IMG/VR virus record: IMGVR_UViG_3300047550_001767
Location: 24,674-88,673 of that record
Origin: a virus
DNA: 64,000 nucleotides
Direction: 5' to 3' (one strand)
Below the pieces are notes generated by a model, which worked only from the letters and a program-made list of their open reading frames with translations, did not search any database and had not been told where the DNA came from. This document shows, piece by piece, positions 5,866-61,693 of this stretch. Each line of letters begins with the position of its first letter. Position 1 is the first letter of the stretch. A program made the position numbers and the translations under genes.

Positions 5866-7100
5866 AAAAGTTTTCTCACAAAGTTCTTATGGAGTAATTC
5901 GCATTTAGGATCATCTCCCCTTAAAAATGGGGCAGTCTTACTAATAATCATTTTTTGATTGTGTTCACAAATAGGTTTTACATTGTCTATAAAAGTTTGT
6001 ATCTCGTCATTATTGTAATTGCAAATTTTTTCGATCTCTTTAATTATTTTTTTAAGTCTTTCACAATCATCAAATTCATTATCGTAACTTTCATCTATAT
6101 AAGGATGAAACGTTTTATATCCTATTTCTCGTAATAATTCTAAACTTTTCGGTACGGTAACAAATATAAAAGGGTGACCTACGGCGATAGGTTTGAATAT
6201 CTTTTCACTTAGAAATCTTGCCTCATTCATTCCTTCCCCATGATAAAATGTAGTTTCAGTAACTACACTTACTAAACTATTAAGGTATAGATAAAGACTT
6301 TTGCCTTCTAGATGCGGTTTATTTTCTACTAATTCATCAGTATCTAGATAAAGTTCTGGCATATTTAATATGCTTTGCTCATTGTCGGTTAAGAGTTTAG
6401 AAATTTCTGCATCTTTACTATGATGTCCTTTAATCCACCACCAAATATCATTCCATCCTCGACAATCATCACTACGTGCTAAACTTACATATCCTTGTGG
6501 AAGCAAATTTTTAGCATGTAATAATGCGACTAATGTAGGCCTGTGTAGGCGCCATCTACGATTAAAATTCAAGAATCGTTTCGGGTATGGTTGATATGTT
6601 AATACTTTGCTATAATCAACACTTATTTGTTGCGCTTCTATGCTTATTGATTCTTCAAACTCCAATAACCATTCTACGTTCATATACTCAAAATTATTTT
6701 CATCAGCATATTTTTTAACTGCTTTACCTAAATCTGCTGCTTCATTTGCTATGTAAATTTTATGAGCTGGAATACCGGCATCAACAACTAATGATTGATA
6801 AAGGGGTTCAACTATGTCTAAAAAAGCCTCATGTGTATTTGCCAAATACAAATATGTTCTACTATCTGTTTTTATTTTATCCAAAATAACTTCAGGCATT
6901 ACAGAGTCTATAGGAAAGACATCAAATGCGTCACCGTGAAAAAATTCAATATACCAGTAATCTTTATCATCCCAAGTTCTTAACAACCATATTAAACAAC
7001 CGTCGGCCTCATGACGTATCCAGTTATCATTTTCATTACCAGTTCTAGAGGTATGTAAATATTTAAAGCCCAATTTATATTGTTTATTGAGTAAAGCCAT
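5862..7100 (-). CDS. GT10-like/GT-B glycosyltransferase-like protein
   Basis: FLNFNRRWRLHR, SVVTET...FLSEKIFKP...HPFI...GYKTFHPYIDESYDNE (16 aa identical to 2579..3730). Confidence 0.55.
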   Translation of the reverse strand: MALLNKQYKLGFKYLHTSRTGNENDNWIRHEADGCLIWLLRTWDDKDYWYIEFFHGDAFDVFPIDSVMPEVILDKIKTDSRTYLYLANTHEAFLDIVEPLYQSLVVDAGIPAHKIYIANEAADLGKAVKKYADENNFEYMNVEWLLEFEESISIEAQQISVDYSKVLTYQPYPKRFLNFNRRWRLHRPTLVALLHAKNLLPQGYVSLARSDDCRGWNDIWWWIKGHHSKDAEISKLLTDNEQSILNMPELYLDTDELVENKPHLEGKSLYLYLNSLVSVVTETTFYHGEGMNEARFLSEKIFKPIAVGHPFIFVTVPKSLELLREIGYKTFHPYIDESYDNEFDDCERLKKIIKEIEKICNYNNDEIQTFIDNVKPICEHNQKMIISKTAPFLRGDDPKCELLHKNFVRKLL

Positions 7101-7103
7101 ATA

Positions 7104-7814
7104 TTAAAAATTAATTTCTACCATTTTTCCCGGTTTGTAATTGTCTATGCATTCAATTATAGCATTCGCTAATAACTTATGCATTTTAAGTGATAAATGG
7201 CATTCTCTAGTTTCATTTGATAAATTTTGAGGCCACTCGTCCTTTCTGCTCAAAAGCATTAAAGGAGGTCTTACTTCTGCACAATTTTCAAAACGATGAA
7301 AGTATTTAATATCTTTAAAGTTCACTGAATCATAAATTTCCCATTTATTAAGTGGTACCTGCGAGAAAACATGTAAGTTAATAAATTTTACTGATGGAAA
7401 ATCAAGAACCATATGATCATACATGTTCATTAGTGCAGACATTTCAATATCTGGTTTTTCAGTAAGGGCAAAGTGTTTATAATAGTTGATTGCGGCTTTA
7501 TACACAGGGTTGTTAATATCTGTTGTATCGGTAACTTTTCTATTTGCTATGCTCTCATTTAAAACAGGCATAAAATTATTGTATAATCTATTAATATCAG
7601 ACCAAACAAATATAACAACATCTGGCACAGATTCATTTTTCATGTAATCAAGAAAATTAAAAAATGCTGACCACGGACCAGTTCCGCTCACCCCTCTGAA
7701 ATCGACATCAGCATTATACTTTGATCTTAGAATACCTTCATAGACCTGTGGTATTAAAGGATTACCCTGTTGTAATCTTAATATAAAACTATCTCCAAAA
7801 CCTACAATTTTCAT
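7104..7814 (-). CDS. SGNH/GDSL hydrolase-like protein
   Basis: MKIVGFGDSF block I, GVSGTG block II, C-terminal ETRECHL. Tandem paralogue of 7811..8584. Confidence 0.6.
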   Translation of the reverse strand: MKIVGFGDSFILRLQQGNPLIPQVYEGILRSKYNADVDFRGVSGTGPWSAFFNFLDYMKNESVPDVVIFVWSDINRLYNNFMPVLNESIANRKVTDTTDINNPVYKAAINYYKHFALTEKPDIEMSALMNMYDHMVLDFPSVKFINLHVFSQVPLNKWEIYDSVNFKDIKYFHRFENCAEVRPPLMLLSRKDEWPQNLSNETRECHLSLKMHKLLANAIIECIDNYKPGKMVEINF

Positions 7815-56873: not shown

Positions 56874-58637
56874 ATGATATCTTTAAAGAACATAACACTA
56901 AGAAACTTTCTATCGATTGGCGCAGTCACACAGGCTGTGAACTTTGATAGCAAGGAACTCACATTGATTCTTGGTGAGAACCTCGATCTTGGTGGTGACG
57001 GTGCTAGAAACGGTACTGGTAAGACTACATTAATACAGGGTTTATCATATGTACTATTTGGTACGCCAATCAATCAAATTCGTAAAGATAATCTAATCAA
57101 TCGTACCAATGCTAAGGGTATGATGGTTACATTAGAGTTTAGTTGTAACGGTGTTGATTATAAGATTGAACGCGGTCGTAAACCAAATGTATTAAAATTT
57201 TATATAAATAATCAGGAAGAAGAATGTGTAAACGATGCTCAAGGTGAAAATAAAGAAACACAAGAGCATATAGAACGTGCAATAGGTATGACACCCGATA
57301 TGTTTAAACATATTGTGGCACTAAATACTTATAGCGAACCATTTTTAGCCATGAAGGCTAATGATCAGCGTAACATTATTGAACAGTTGCTTGGCATCAC
57401 ATTGTTGAGTGAAAAAGCAGAACTTATAAAAGAGCAAATAAAGAGTACAAAAGACAAAATAACCGAAGAAGAATATAAAAACAAAGCAATAGAAGAAGCA
57501 AATAAACGAATACAAGAACAAATTGAAAACTTAAAAAGACGAGCGAAACTTTGGGATGCCAAGCACGATGAAGATTTATTGAAACTCAAAGATGACCTTG
57601 AAGAACTACAAAAGTTAGATATTGATAGTGAACTTCAGGGTCATAAAGATTTGGCTTTATATAATCAAAAGAAAAAAGATTTAGCCGACCTAGATAAAGC
57701 AATCAATAGAACAGAGAGTGATATAGATCGTGAAGAAAAAGGTCTAAAGAAAGCCGAAAAAGAATTAAAATCATTACAAGATCATAAGTGTCATACTTGT
57801 GGTCAAGATATACACGATGATAAACATAATAAACTTTTAAAGGAAAGAGAAAAATTTGTAAAAGCCACCACAGACACACTCGCTACATTGAAAGCAGAGT
57901 TGTTAGAACTAACTACGGCAAAAACAGAACTAGGTACTATCGGTAAACAACCAAAATTATACTATGATACAGAGCAAGAAGCCTTTCAACATCGTAGTTT
58001 AGTTGATTCATTGATTGTAAAAATTGACGAAAAAGAAAAAGATGAAAATCCATACACCGATCAAATTGGTGAAATGGAAAGTCAAGCACTACAACCAATA
58101 AGTTTTGATAAAATAAATGAGTACACAAGATTATCAGACCATCAAAAGTTTTTGTTAGAGTTATTAACAAGTAAAGATAGTTTCGTCCGCAAGAAGATTA
58201 TCGATCAAAATCTAAGTTATCTCAATGCAAGGCTCACACACTACCTTGATAGAATAGGCTTGCCTCATCAAGTTGTATTCCAAAACGATCTTAATGTTGA
58301 GATTACCGAATTAGGTCGTGAACTTGATTTCGATAATCTTTCTCGCGGCGAACGCAATAGATTGATATTAGGTCTATCATTTGCGTTCCGTGATGTATGG
58401 GAAAGTCTATATAGCCCAATCAATACATTGTTTATTGATGAATTGATTGACAGCGGTATGGATAGTATCGGTGTTGAAAACAGCATGGCTATTCTCAAAG
58501 ACATGTCACGTAATAGGAACAAGTCAGTATGGCTTGTAAGTCATCGTGAAGAACTTGCAGGTCGTGTACCTAGCGTACTGAAGGTTGTCAAAGAAAACGG
58601 ATTCACTACATATAACACTACACATGATTTTGTATGA
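56874..58637 (+). CDS. gp46: Recombination ATPase subunit (gp46/Rad50/SbcC-like)
   Basis: Walker A NGTGKTT, coiled coil with CHTC zinc hook, LSRGE signature, LFIDE Walker B, VSH. Confidence 0.94.
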   Translation: MISLKNITLRNFLSIGAVTQAVNFDSKELTLILGENLDLGGDGARNGTGKTTLIQGLSYVLFGTPINQIRKDNLINRTNAKGMMVTLEFSCNGVDYKIERGRKPNVLKFYINNQEEECVNDAQGENKETQEHIERAIGMTPDMFKHIVALNTYSEPFLAMKANDQRNIIEQLLGITLLSEKAELIKEQIKSTKDKITEEEYKNKAIEEANKRIQEQIENLKRRAKLWDAKHDEDLLKLKDDLEELQKLDIDSELQGHKDLALYNQKKKDLADLDKAINRTESDIDREEKGLKKAEKELKSLQDHKCHTCGQDIHDDKHNKLLKEREKFVKATTDTLATLKAELLELTTAKTELGTIGKQPKLYYDTEQEAFQHRSLVDSLIVKIDEKEKDENPYTDQIGEMESQALQPISFDKINEYTRLSDHQKFLLELLTSKDSFVRKKIIDQNLSYLNARLTHYLDRIGLPHQVVFQNDLNVEITELGRELDFDNLSRGERNRLILGLSFAFRDVWESLYSPINTLFIDELIDSGMDSIGVENSMAILKDMSRNRNKSVWLVSHREELAGRVPSVLKVVKENGFTTYNTTHDFV

Positions 58638-59647
58638 GTTTAGCATTATGGCATTGGCATATAGAGGTAAGTAGTAAATGTACATTACGCTGTCCGCGAT
58701 GCGCACGTAGTGAAGTGCCAAAAACTTTAACCAATACAGAATTAAATTTAGATTTTTTTAAAAAGAATTTTACACCAGAGTTTGTAAGTAGGCATGTTGA
58801 AAAAATTACCTTTTGCGGCGATGACGGTGATCCTATCTACGCACATGATCTAGTACCCATTATTAGATATCTAAAATCATTTAAAGATATAGCCATAGTA
58901 ATAGTAACTAACGGCAGTTATAAAAAACAAGATTGGTGGACTAATTTGGCAAAAATATTAACGGAAGTCGATCACGTTCATTTTAGTTTGGATGGCTATG
59001 ATCAAGCAAGTAATGAGCAGTACCGTATCAATAGTGATTGGGACAGTATTATGCTGGGTATTAATACTTTGAGAAGCAATAGTAGATGCTATATGACTTG
59101 GGATGCTATAGGATTTAAGTTTAATGAAAATCACATAGATCGTATGATGAGCATGGCTAAAAATTTAGGTTTTGACCAATTTCAATTAACACGAAGCACA
59201 AAATTTGGTAGCAAGTATGATCATTATGGAACCAATGATGCACTTGAGCCTACACGTAAAGATTTAATAAGTAGTACTCACCGTTTTGAAAGACGTATTT
59301 GGAATTTATCTAATCGTACTTTACGTGAGCGTTATACAGAAACAAATTTACAATTGTTTAATGATGTTAAAGTTATAGGTGATATTAAACCTATATGCCA
59401 TATAGGCAATAAAGGATTGTTTATTAATAGCAAAGGTGAATTTTACCCATGTTGTTGGGTAGCAAATAGATATAGCCATAACACTCATTGGTCTGAGTTA
59501 GGAAAAAAATATAACTTAAATCTTACAACACTTACAGATGTTGTAAGTGATAAATTTTGGAATAAAAATTTTGTTGAAAATAGTTACGAATGTAGTACAA
59601 AATGTTCAGCAAAATACGTAGATAAAAATTACGCCACTGAGTGGTAA
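58634..59647 (+). CDS. Radical SAM protein with C-terminal twitch/SPASM domain
   Basis: SSKCTLRCPRC, CGDDGDP, TNG, FSLDG, C-terminal PIC...YPCCW...ECSTKC. Overlaps the gp46 stop (ATGA). Confidence 0.88.
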   Translation: MSLALWHWHIEVSSKCTLRCPRCARSEVPKTLTNTELNLDFFKKNFTPEFVSRHVEKITFCGDDGDPIYAHDLVPIIRYLKSFKDIAIVIVTNGSYKKQDWWTNLAKILTEVDHVHFSLDGYDQASNEQYRINSDWDSIMLGINTLRSNSRCYMTWDAIGFKFNENHIDRMMSMAKNLGFDQFQLTRSTKFGSKYDHYGTNDALEPTRKDLISSTHRFERRIWNLSNRTLRERYTETNLQLFNDVKVIGDIKPICHIGNKGLFINSKGEFYPCCWVANRYSHNTHWSELGKKYNLNLTTLTDVVSDKFWNKNFVENSYECSTKCSAKYVDKNYATEW

Positions 59648-59663
59648 TCGTATACATATAGTC

Positions 59664-60236
59664 ATGCCTAATCCACAAAAACAAAAGGGAAACAGTTTTG
59701 AGCGTGAAGTCGCTATACATCTTAGCAAACTCTACAATGAGAGTTTTATTCGTGCTCCTGGATCCGGTGCGTATGTAGGTGGTAAAAATCAAGTACGCAC
59801 ACAAATACTGCACGAAGGGCAGATTCGTAGTTTTAAAGGTGATATAGTGCCCGGGCAGAGTTTCAGCAAAATGAATGCTGAGTGTAAAAGTTATGCTGAT
59901 TTTCCATTTCATCAAGTTTTAACTGGAGAATGTAAAATTCTAGAAAGTTGGTTAGATCAAATGATGGATGTAAGCGAGTCAGATGATGTTAATATATTGT
60001 TTATGAAATTTAACCGTAAAGGAAAGTTTGTAGCAGTACAAACGTCTATGACTTGGGTTACAGATAATTTTTTATATTTTACTTCTAAAAAACACAAAGA
60101 CTGGGTTATTATAGAATTTGACCATTTTTTTAAACTCAACAAAGACCTTCTTAAATCATATTGTTCAGGCAAATCAGAGAACAACTCAATTCATACCATT
60201 ACTACTGAAATAGTTCCTACATTTACAAAATTATAA
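59664..60236 (+). CDS. Holliday junction resolvase-like PD-(D/E)XK nuclease
   Basis: KG..FERE, R.P.SGA, GDI, ECK (Hjc-type motifs); follows gp46. Confidence 0.8.
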   Translation: MPNPQKQKGNSFEREVAIHLSKLYNESFIRAPGSGAYVGGKNQVRTQILHEGQIRSFKGDIVPGQSFSKMNAECKSYADFPFHQVLTGECKILESWLDQMMDVSESDDVNILFMKFNRKGKFVAVQTSMTWVTDNFLYFTSKKHKDWVIIEFDHFFKLNKDLLKSYCSGKSENNSIHTITTEIVPTFTKL

Positions 60237-60261
60237 AATTAGTTGATAGTTTATCTATCCT

Positions 60262-60570
60262 CCTTGAGCAAGTCTAGTTTACTAGTCACCTGCGGATCTG
60301 GAGTAAAGATACTTTTATAGTATCGTATACCGAGAGGGCAATCGACAGGTTTGCGAACCCTCAATGAGCCTATATCTTATTTCGTTTTGCGGATATAGGA
60401 CATGCGTTATAGTAGATGAGAGTCTACAACTACAGTCCATAAACTTTACAGTATAACCGGTAGCGTATAACATCACAACAGGGTAGTTATACGGGAACAA
60501 ACGACATGGCTGATGGGCAGGCAAGTCCACAGTTTGGTAGTGCTGAGATAGCACTACCATGGCTTCAAAG
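60262..60570 (+). ncRNA. Candidate structured non-coding RNA (~310 nt), family unassigned
   Basis: Only long intergenic region in the window, visibly more GC-rich than flanking genes. At least 8 helices incl. a perfect 10-bp stem (60535-44/60550-59), two 8-bp stems, a GNRA-capped stem and long-range closing stems. Confidence 0.6.
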
Positions 60571-60593
60571 CGGCAAATCATTCATATACCAAA

Positions 60594-60644
60594 TAAAAAA
60601 ATAAGTCCGAGCGAAGCGAGGACTTAGACAAACGAAGTTTGTCT
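60594..60644 (-). terminator. Tandem hairpins plus U-tract; probable intrinsic terminator of the gp26/gp51 transcript
   Basis: Immediately after the 60645 stop on the minus strand: AGACAAAC-TTC-GTTTGTCT, then TAAGTCC...GGACTTA followed by TTTTTTT. Confidence 0.55.
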
Positions 60645-60874
60645 TTAAAAGAATGGCAACTGAGTTTTCTTAGTAATGTCCATATGCTCATCTACTAATT
60701 CTGCTAAATGTTTTCTTTCTTGATAAGACATGTTAAGGACATCTTCATAGGTCGCACTGCCTCTCATATACCAAGCCATGGATAATGCGTTCTTTTTTAT
60801 ACCCTGAACCTCAAGTTCCATATTTTCAACTAACTTCTTTATATCTTCAGGGTTAGCCGTCAGAAGTCTTAGCC
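60645..60874 (-). CDS. gp51-like baseplate-hub/tail assembly chaperone segment, probably translated as a -1 frameshift extension of the upstream gene (alternative start ATG 60821)
   Basis: WYMRG...Y..V.NMS..ER...FF motif. Frame is open across the upstream gene's stop, and T TTT TTC lies at 60875-60881. Confidence 0.7.
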
Positions 60875-61693
60875 GAAAAAATCTGATGCGTTGAGAGTAT
60901 ATGGTTGTTGATATTCGTTGCTGCAATTAGTACATTTAATTTCTAAAGGTTTTAATTCAGTACTATTTTTAAGATTTGCATTATGGTCACGAATTGCAAT
61001 ATAAATGCTACCATCGCAGTTATGTAAGAAATCATCAATAAATTCTTTTTCGGTAACTGTGGTGGTTGGAGTTTCTATATAATCTATTGTGTTACTGATT
61101 ATTTTCATGGTTGCTTCAGTAATATCACGTACAGCGTTTTGTGTTACTTTTGCCTTTTCATCAACATTTTCAATAGTTTCAATATTGGCATATACTTTTT
61201 GAATATTAAATTGATCAGTAGCAGCCTGATTCATTTCTTTATAAGTCAGTGGTCTAAACTTTATTTTAAGATCATTGACTGCTAACGGGGTATCATAATC
61301 ACCCTGCTTCATTTGTGCTAATACATTTAATAAGTTTAACCCAAATCTTTCACTATTTTCGCACTTAGGACAAGTTGTATCAATTTCTAATGTCTCTTGG
61401 CCACCTGCTGCTCTAATAGCAATTAATACAGCATCTAGATCGTTAGCATTTAAACGCCATGGGTCTTTAATTGCCGGTACGCAACTTTTAATAAGATCAG
61501 TTATTGCTGACCCGTTAAACAATGCGTCAGGAGTCCTTACAGTAATTTCATCTATTGCAGTCATGGGATATACTGGTAATTCCCCTGATTCAGGCATTTC
61601 TAATACGCCTGGCTGATATCCTTTACCTGCGCTCGGTAATTTAAAATGAACTGCTGGTCTACGAAAAAACTGCTTTAGTGGATTATTCTCCAT
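60869..61693 (-). CDS. Baseplate hub/tail assembly chaperone (T4 gp26-like)
   Basis: NPL..FFR.P....LPS.G..Y, PMTA.DE, D.DA.LIAIR.A, two CxxC pairs (CPKC, CTNC), terminal DFF; AGAGGA RBS. Confidence 0.8.
   Translation of the reverse strand: MENNPLKQFFRRPAVHFKLPSAGKGYQPGVLEMPESGELPVYPMTAIDEITVRTPDALFNGSAITDLIKSCVPAIKDPWRLNANDLDAVLIAIRAAGGQETLEIDTTCPKCENSERFGLNLLNVLAQMKQGDYDTPLAVNDLKIKFRPLTYKEMNQAATDQFNIQKVYANIETIENVDEKAKVTQNAVRDITEATMKIISNTIDYIETPTTTVTEKEFIDDFLHNCDGSIYIAIRDHNANLKNSTELKPLEIKCTNCSNEYQQPYTLNASDFFG

Follow-up and report, generated by a model that had tools for sequence, protein, structure and literature searches.

An RNA of ~335 nucleotides with two pseudoknots behind a small nuclease gene of uncultured jumbo phages, an apparent divergent form of the Polynucleobacter-1 RNA

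Behind a small resolvase-like nuclease gene of an uncultured jumbo phage lies a noncoding RNA gene of ~335 nt, at positions 60245-60578 on the plus strand of the window, as we call the whole 64-kb stretch of DNA that was analyzed. The RNA probably extends through two tail hairpins to position ~60644. The analysis yields its full secondary structure with two pseudoknots and links it to an orphan motif of 2010, Polynucleobacter-1 (RF01718), which was described by Weinberg et al. (PMC2864571). We lean toward the reading that it is a divergent Polynucleobacter-1 form that is co-transcribed with the nuclease gene and acts as a stable folded RNA; we rate a coding region, a signal at the DNA level, and a simple untranslated region as less likely. 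The hosts of this RNA are uncultured giant phages of freshwater and sediment, in which it occupies the junction between recombination and baseplate genes.

The source contig, an IMG/VR record of 88.7 kb with an estimated completeness of 26%, derives from an uncultured T4-like jumbo phage, and its gp46 shares ~49% identity with the counterparts in Pseudomonas phage PA5oct and related phages. On the plus strand, the RNA is preceded by a gp46-like SbcC gene (56874-58637), a radical-SAM/SPASM protein gene (58634-59647), and the gene of a 190-residue PD-(D/E)XK nuclease of resolvase-like character (59664-60236). This nuclease matches Pfam PDDEXK_15 (E 2.6e-24) as well as PHROG 244, "RusA-like Holliday junction resolvase" (E 6.4e-18), and a PDB sequence search with it gave no match. 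Convergent with the RNA, the minus strand carries a 93-residue ORF, orf93 (60645-60926), without Pfam or PHROG match, followed by the gene of a gp51-like baseplate hub protein (60869-61693; Pfam T4_baseplate, E 5.3e-17; PHROG 150, baseplate hub); the two overlap by 58 nt. When ORFs of at least 100 residues are counted, 60237-60868 is the sole gap of at least 200 nt in the window; the original prediction of a large structured RNA had called the site the only ~400-bp gap of a tightly packed segment. The GC content of the gap is ~40%, compared with ~34% in the surroundings.

Using the nuclease protein as the query, 80 viral loci were fetched, and in 79 the sequence of the gap is present with 68-92% nucleotide identity. 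The RNA is often better conserved at the nucleotide level than the nuclease is at the protein level. When our structure, pseudoknots included, was scored on 121 distinct relatives, 89.8% of the pair cells were paired, compared with 33-44% after the partners had been slid, and 67 of the 93 pairs showed two-sided changes. Not one of 500 shuffles attained any of the structure measures. With RNAalifold, compensatory changes were found in 44 of 67 pairs among 52 distinct sequences, and the pseudoknots emerged from a mutual-information scan of 122 distinct sequences. Within the helices, G-U pairs outnumber A-C combinations by 644 to 190, which assigns the RNA to the plus strand. The fold of the single sequence is only mildly unusual (z-score of -2.8 for the plus strand and -2.4 for the minus strand); the proof lies in the comparison of relatives and not in the folding energy.

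The region failed as a protein-coding gene: from one relative to the next, the longest frame free of stop codons varies between 42 and 126 codons and changes strand, and the gap runs of the alignment, sorted by length modulo three, number 2651 and 1148 against 243 in frame. The original prediction, in which the sequence was quoted correctly, had claimed a plus-strand, ribozyme-sized structured noncoding RNA, and both the G-U excess and the covariation uphold this. Among the checks that it had proposed, conservation with covariation in relatives (67 of 93 pairs) and the search of Rfam (no match at the gathering threshold and only chance matches at a permissive E-value) came out in its favor, and the folding z-score was only mildly unusual.

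The 5' domain comprises P1 to P3 and, like all elements of the RNA described below, lies on the plus strand. P1 is a hairpin (GAUAG/CUAUC; 60245-60259) with arms that are wholly different yet complementary across relatives; its covariation counts are low because P1 is misaligned in the alignment used for counting. In P2 (60260-60303), CCUC (60260-63) pairs with GGAG (60300-03); the helix is 99.6% paired and shows three double changes from C-G to U-A. It encloses the hairpin P2a (60268-60293), whose pairs covary, and an internal loop with the conserved strands UUGAG and GGAUCU. In many relatives, the window excepted, the P2a loop (aligned to 60274-60285) repeats the 5' strand of P12 (60536-60544; GUAGUGCUG), and such a copy could compete for the 3' strand of P12, permitting an alternative fold. 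P3 (60308-60324), which had been predicted as a hairpin of 60308-13 with 60319-24, shows changes on both sides in all six pairs. Five relatives (L094, L104, L111, L139, and L162) carry insertions of 40-60 nt in P3, and an extra hairpin follows the GGAG of P2 in two more (L188 and L199), indicating that these peripheral elements tolerate expansion.

The core domain (60328-60462) is closed by P4, formed by UACCG (60328-32) and CGGUA (60458-62). Inside it are P5 (60334-60362), P6, where AUG (60364-66) pairs with CAU (60401-03), P7 (60369-60399), P8, where GUUAUA (60406-11) pairs with UAUAAC (60452-57), and the hairpin P9 (60412-60427), which is followed by a near-invariant junction, ACUACAGUCC..AAACUUUACAG (60428-60451). 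These core helices (the P4 domain, 9-14 of the count) are 97-99.7% paired, and most of their pairs covary. For P6 and P7 together, all 11 pairs covary and 98.7% of the cells are paired, in agreement with the predicted hairpin of 60369-76 and 60392-99. Of the predicted hairpin with a GNRA tetraloop at 60412-27, the stem is real and covaries at its base, but the loop is not conserved and the length of P9 is variable.

The core is tied to the strand behind it by two pseudoknots. Pseudoknot 1 joins UCGUU in the P7 loop (60382-86) to AACGA (60500-04); it is 97.2% paired, all five pairs have changed on both sides, and these are the top pairs in mutual information. Pseudoknot 2 joins UCC in the P9/P8 junction (60436-38) to GGA (60494-96) and is 98.6% paired, with covariation in all three pairs. 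In most relatives, it consists of UCCC with GGGG(A), so that the change in length by one base is joint on both strands. P10 (60464-60493) stands between the core and these 3' strands; it is a hairpin with a bulged A, 91.7% paired, with 10 of 11 pairs changed on both sides, and matches the predicted hairpin of 60464-71 and 60486-93. Directly behind P10, the 3' strands of both pseudoknots, GGA and then AACGA, are separated by a conserved A-rich spacer (60494-60504). The closing helix P4 (60328-32/60458-62) and pseudoknot 2 (60436-38/60494-96) were absent from the original prediction, and two long-range stems that it contained did not hold up. One of these, ACCTG/CAGGT (60288-92/60346-50), includes 60346-50, which form the P5 loop and are exchanged for CAAA in most relatives; for the other, CATGCGTT with AACG-A-CATG (AACGACATG), the true partners are those of P6, P8, and pseudoknot 1.

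The 3' part begins with P11 (60510-60532), an irregular hairpin with a GCAA-type loop and a 5' strand, GGAUGACGGGCAUGGCAA, that is conserved in most relatives. An equivalent bulged hairpin recurs in the per-sequence folds of 35 diverse relatives, including a change from AUG/CAU to GUG/CAC, in line with the hairpin predicted for 60510-32. P12 (60535-60559), likewise predicted (60535-44/60550-59), is a hairpin of 10 bp with an almost invariant sequence. Its stem is identical in 51 of the 52 distinct sequences fetched by the nuclease, for which the motif itself was not used, and the remaining one has a G-U pair. The conserved 3' tail, UGGCUUCAAAGCGGCAA (60560-60578), consists of columns that are at least 90% conserved. 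The proposed joining of the ends, UUGAG (60264-68) with the 3' tail (TTGAGC/GCTTCAA), is 88% paired, shows no change on both sides, and leaves U-to-C variants uncompensated.

Beyond the tail and an A-rich variable linker follow two adjoining hairpins with C-GAA-G loops: T1 (60603-60625), with an inner GA-NC-GAA-GN-GA in which tandem G.A pairs surround a mini-stem, and T2 (60626-60644), of 8 bp with a GAA loop. The two are conserved as a module across the family and have covarying stems; they often share ACGAAGU or GCGAAGC, with many exceptions. On the minus strand, a T run follows T1, which makes T1 look like a terminator of the gp51 operon, and a weak alignment to the SorY family of Rfam includes a terminator-like part. 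Judged from these sequence features, T1 and T2 are probably the terminators of both converging transcripts. A scan for the terminator consensus found no canonical terminator.

A transcript shared by the nuclease gene and the RNA is plausible, because P1 starts 8 nt past the nuclease stop codon on the same strand and without a separate promoter signal. Six promoter-like sites were found in a sigma-70 scan, compared with 3.0 +/- 2.1 in shuffles, which is no excess. An A-rich 5' flank (60232-60244, plus strand) overlaps the nuclease stop codon and reads T-A-A/C-A-A-A/T-T followed by nnGTT; among 93 relatives, A reaches a frequency of 0.93-0.94 at three positions and T 0.94 at one. A leader, a processing site, and a -10-like element are all candidates for its role. 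As a general promoter, the motif was rejected, with 35 sites against 26 expected and no placement before genes. Close relatives of 60237-60517 occur in contigs of three metatranscriptome studies; being contigs only, with DNA carry-over possible, they give a weak hint of expression. One of them spans the 3' end of the nuclease gene and continues into the RNA.

The RNA is widespread among related phages. A scan with the P12 motif found at least 119 further contigs, some of them 259-525 kb long, and the family is kept in ~200 fetched contigs. The window's record holds a single copy, and so does each of five genomes with sizes of 259-525 kb. Without exception, the order in these relatives is gp46, an optional radical-SAM gene, a small nuclease gene, the RNA, and the convergent pair of orf93 and gp51, which is syntenic. 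The radical-SAM/SPASM gene occurs in only some relatives; elsewhere the nuclease gene adjoins gp46 directly or another small gene intervenes, such as an Hc1-like ORF in the contig L291. A PDDEXK_15 nuclease gene stands immediately 5' of the RNA in nearly all relatives. In the contig L139, its position before a window-type RNA is occupied by a SegE-like GIY-YIG gene (6718-7161, plus strand; E 9e-36), and the locus is a hot spot of gene insertion or replacement. Genes found between the RNA and orf93 in relatives are a 165-residue ORF, which has a GIY-YIG-like N terminus without Pfam match, a 203-residue ORF, or a DUF6071 gene; the inserted-gene loci are L124:6024-6521 (plus), L171:3162-3773 (plus), and L182:1998-2741 (minus).

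Outside this group of phages, blastn of the region against 50,697 GenBank phages gave no match, and the P12 motif is absent from ~185,000 prokaryote genomes. A covariance model of the core domain (P4) and P10, termed R1, found nothing below E 0.1 in five cultured jumbo phages that are relatives: Pseudomonas Paride, Sinorhizobium Phosso, Agrobacterium Atu_ph07, Salicola SCTP-2, and Vibrio 2.275.O. Beside the resolvase genes of Phosso (L202:8411-9424) and Paride (L002:9018-11206), ~1-2 kb are unannotated or hold tiny ORFs only, and R1 gave no match in these gaps. With Rfam 15 at the gathering threshold, there were no matches in the whole window and 20 related loci. At E-values up to 10, the window RNA, its relatives L052 and L046, and six other loci gave only scattered chance matches; those to SorY (the terminator part), U6, RMST, and snoRNAs were dismissed. 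ARAGORN found no tRNA or tmRNA in the window. The view that the RNA matches no known class is therefore borne out by Rfam, ARAGORN, and the GenBank phages. Its description as a novel RNA is correct insofar as no catalogued family matches it, but its core and its genomic slot are akin to those of Polynucleobacter-1.

Polynucleobacter-1 was described in 2010 as an orphan RNA from freshwater samples that lies downstream of a gene (PMC2864571, supplement). The window RNA is likewise an orphan, derived from freshwater and located behind a gene. The RF01718 model covers 141 positions, which are the 5' part only, and has a gathering score of 37 bits. Positive controls score 86-95 bits with it, and Polynucleobacter-type loci that were fetched with a word from the 2010 alignment contain RF01718 at 86-93 bits. 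The model itself gave no match in the window's 88.7-kb record at E-values up to 10, nor in the five related genomes of 259-525 kb at E-values up to 1.

A connection was revealed by R1. Its best matches adjoin RF01718 on the 3' side, with the same orientation, and score 22.6, 18.6, and 12.8 bits in the bacterial loci L209, L210, and L211; it also matches directly behind RF01718 in the phage contigs L291 (22.2 bits) and L267 (10.3 bits). In all five, the match is R1's best and lies 14-50 nt 3' of RF01718, and the background does not exceed 9.3 bits; the E-values of R1 are rough owing to a short calibration, and the three bacterial loci are closely related to each other. In the alignments, P4, P5, P6, P7, and P8 are kept with different but complementary stems, and the junctions share the words CGAGA, AAC, CAA, UGCGUU, and ACCG with the window RNA. 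When 20 RF01718-type phage loci were scored without filters, 19 had no R1 match and L291 was the exception; with filters, L291 was again the only match among 80 such loci. Accordingly, the relation is distant or patchy.

The slot in the genome is also shared with T4-like phages that carry the RF01718 type. At least 120 viral contigs were retrieved with words of the RF01718 consensus, and 106 of 120 have the order gp46, SegE-like GIY-YIG gene, RNA, and convergent orf93/gp51. The usual 5' gene of these loci is thus a SegE-like GIY-YIG gene, in contrast to PDDEXK_15 in the window. Exchanges occur in both directions, with an RF01718-type RNA behind a PDDEXK gene in L267 and a window-type RNA behind SegE in L139. 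Because the RF01718 model misses the window RNA, the case for homology is built on the core, which is not catalogued, and on synteny. The core matches 3' of RF01718 and the common slot lead us to conclude that the window RNA represents a divergent version, in jumbo phages, of full-length Polynucleobacter-1, with distant homology in the core. The 5' domain of the window RNA (P1-P3) is shorter and resembles RF01718 only in outline. Of that full-length RNA, Rfam has catalogued no more than the 5' third, and its RF01718 entry should be extended and split.

The bacterial RNA is flanked by a DUF6641 gene and, on its downstream side, by the gene of a 189-residue tyrosine recombinase. In the literature searched, Polynucleobacter-1 is mentioned by Weinberg et al. 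(2010) alone, and DUF6641 in no paper. A comparison of L209:2300-2760 with the 2010 alignment (PMC2864571, supplement 101) showed that two downstream words of the bacterial RNA change together from strain to strain, with AGCGAAAG present twice in NC_009379 and AUCAAAAG twice in L209. Tests of column identity and of repeated words in the window family revealed no strictly co-varying identical words.

In the model that we favor, the RNA would be made from the nuclease transcript. It folds into a 5' domain of P1, P2/P2a, and P3, followed by a core in which P4 closes P5, P6-P7, and P8-P9, with P10 next. The strand after P10 is tied first to the P9/P8 junction through pseudoknot 2 and after that to the P7 loop through pseudoknot 1, leaving P11, the almost invariant P12, and the conserved tail as the 3' end. 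Such an RNA may act in trans as a protein-binding scaffold or a catalyst tied to the machinery with which the phage cuts and joins DNA. A bolder proposal, which we consider quite unlikely, is that the RNA is a working partner that guides, licenses, or restrains the adjoining DNA-cutting or -joining enzyme. It would mean, with the same low probability, that a single superfamily of pseudoknotted RNAs travels with PD-(D/E)XK nucleases, SegE-like GIY-YIG nucleases, or mini tyrosine recombinases, and if true it would define a new RNA-dependent DNA-processing module of giant phages and bacterial islands. The phage RNA invariably follows a small nuclease gene of swappable fold. The synteny of the nuclease gene is as strict as that of every other gene of the block, so synteny alone shows no functional tie, and the variation of the nuclease fold between PD-(D/E)XK and GIY-YIG argues against a specific RNA-protein pair. 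With such varied neighbors, the RNA may serve DNA-processing enzymes generally, or such genes may settle beside it. A concrete question follows, namely whether a phage nuclease or recombinase depends on, or is controlled by, a 335-nt RNA.

The same location invites the reading that the structure works in cis, as a 3' untranslated part of the nuclease mRNA, which would block 3' exonucleases as a cap or control the level or timing of the message and would have no role beyond it. In every relative, P1 indeed starts 8 nt past the nuclease stop codon in the same orientation, a dedicated promoter is not apparent, and the metatranscriptome contig that runs from the nuclease 3' end into the RNA fits as well. 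However, a size of ~335 nt, two pseudoknots, and near-invariant bases that number well over 100 in junctions or unpaired stretches go far beyond the known 3' stabilizers, the nucleotides of the RNA are often better conserved than the nuclease protein, the same type of RNA occurs behind unrelated nuclease genes, and in the bacterial relatives it lies 5' of the recombinase gene and not behind it. We therefore regard a cis-acting element as unlikely. A DNA-level signal, such as an origin, a packaging site, a cruciform for the resolvase, or the target of a homing endonuclease, would account for P12 as an invariant perfect inverted repeat beside a resolvase-like gene, and free-standing nuclease genes do occur at or beside the locus in some relatives. 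Against this stand the G-U excess (644 versus 190 A-C), the G-U variant of P12, which breaks the DNA palindrome, and the covariation of the pseudoknots. Nor does the replication-origin transcript that had been considered in the original prediction agree with the genome, where the cumulative GC skew turns near 52 kb and not at 60.3 kb and the genes converge on the locus; a DNA signal is very improbable.

Large, highly conserved, pseudoknotted orphan RNAs are rare, and earlier examples proved to be ribozymes, riboswitches, or RNA machines. A ribozyme, in which the double-pseudoknot core would catalyze self-cleavage or process another RNA, such as the nuclease transcript during its maturation, would suit the size, the compact and doubly knotted core, and the concentration of conserved bases in the junctions. 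By analogy, the order of the 5' strand of P4, the 5' strand of pseudoknot 2, P8'/P4', P10, and the 3' strand of pseudoknot 2 may also recall group I cores. No ribozyme family of Rfam matches at E-values up to 10, no gene is interrupted, and no conserved cleavage-site signature was recognized, which leaves a ribozyme doubtful and in our estimate quite improbable. An RNA-only assembly, a multimeric cage or ring, is suggested by GOLLD and ROOL, which are also phage-borne, large, and ornate (PMC12286853). The window RNA is about half their size and has no Rfam match, and by eye the alignments contain no self-complementary conserved kissing loop; such an assembly is highly unlikely. We thus return to a stable folded RNA of the Polynucleobacter-1 type as the favored reading, and compare it with known systems below.

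GOLLD and ROOL are 1.5-2.5 times longer than the window RNA, are usually located close to tRNA genes, and assemble into RNA-only multimers. Like the window RNA, GOLLD (RF01998) and ROOL (RF03087) are large and intricate, have a function that is unexplained, and are often carried by phages or prophages (PMC12286853). Neither model matches the window RNA or the related loci, and, unlike in GOLLD and ROOL, nothing in the window RNA points to multimerization. In the group I core (RF00028), the strand order P3-P7-P3'-P8-P7' may find a parallel in the order P4-pseudoknot 2-P10, and homing-type nuclease genes neighbor the RNA in relatives. Pseudoknot 2 has only 3-4 pairs, unlike the group I core, and RF00028 gives no match at E-values up to 10. 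The RNA is flanked by a complete nuclease ORF and by convergent genes, with no gene interrupted. Unlike a group I intron, it has no exons to join, because it lies between convergent genes.

The bridge RNA of IS110 and the omega RNA of TnpB/IscB (HEARO) have no homology to the window RNA, and their neighboring enzyme families differ. Alignment- and word-based searches revealed neither strictly linked paired boxes nor a guide-like segment that covaries with a DNA target. The likeness is one of arrangement: in each of these systems, a structured RNA stands beside a nuclease or recombinase gene, and the bacterial relative of the window RNA, which adjoins the 189-residue tyrosine recombinase, is comparable to the bridge and omega RNAs in this respect.
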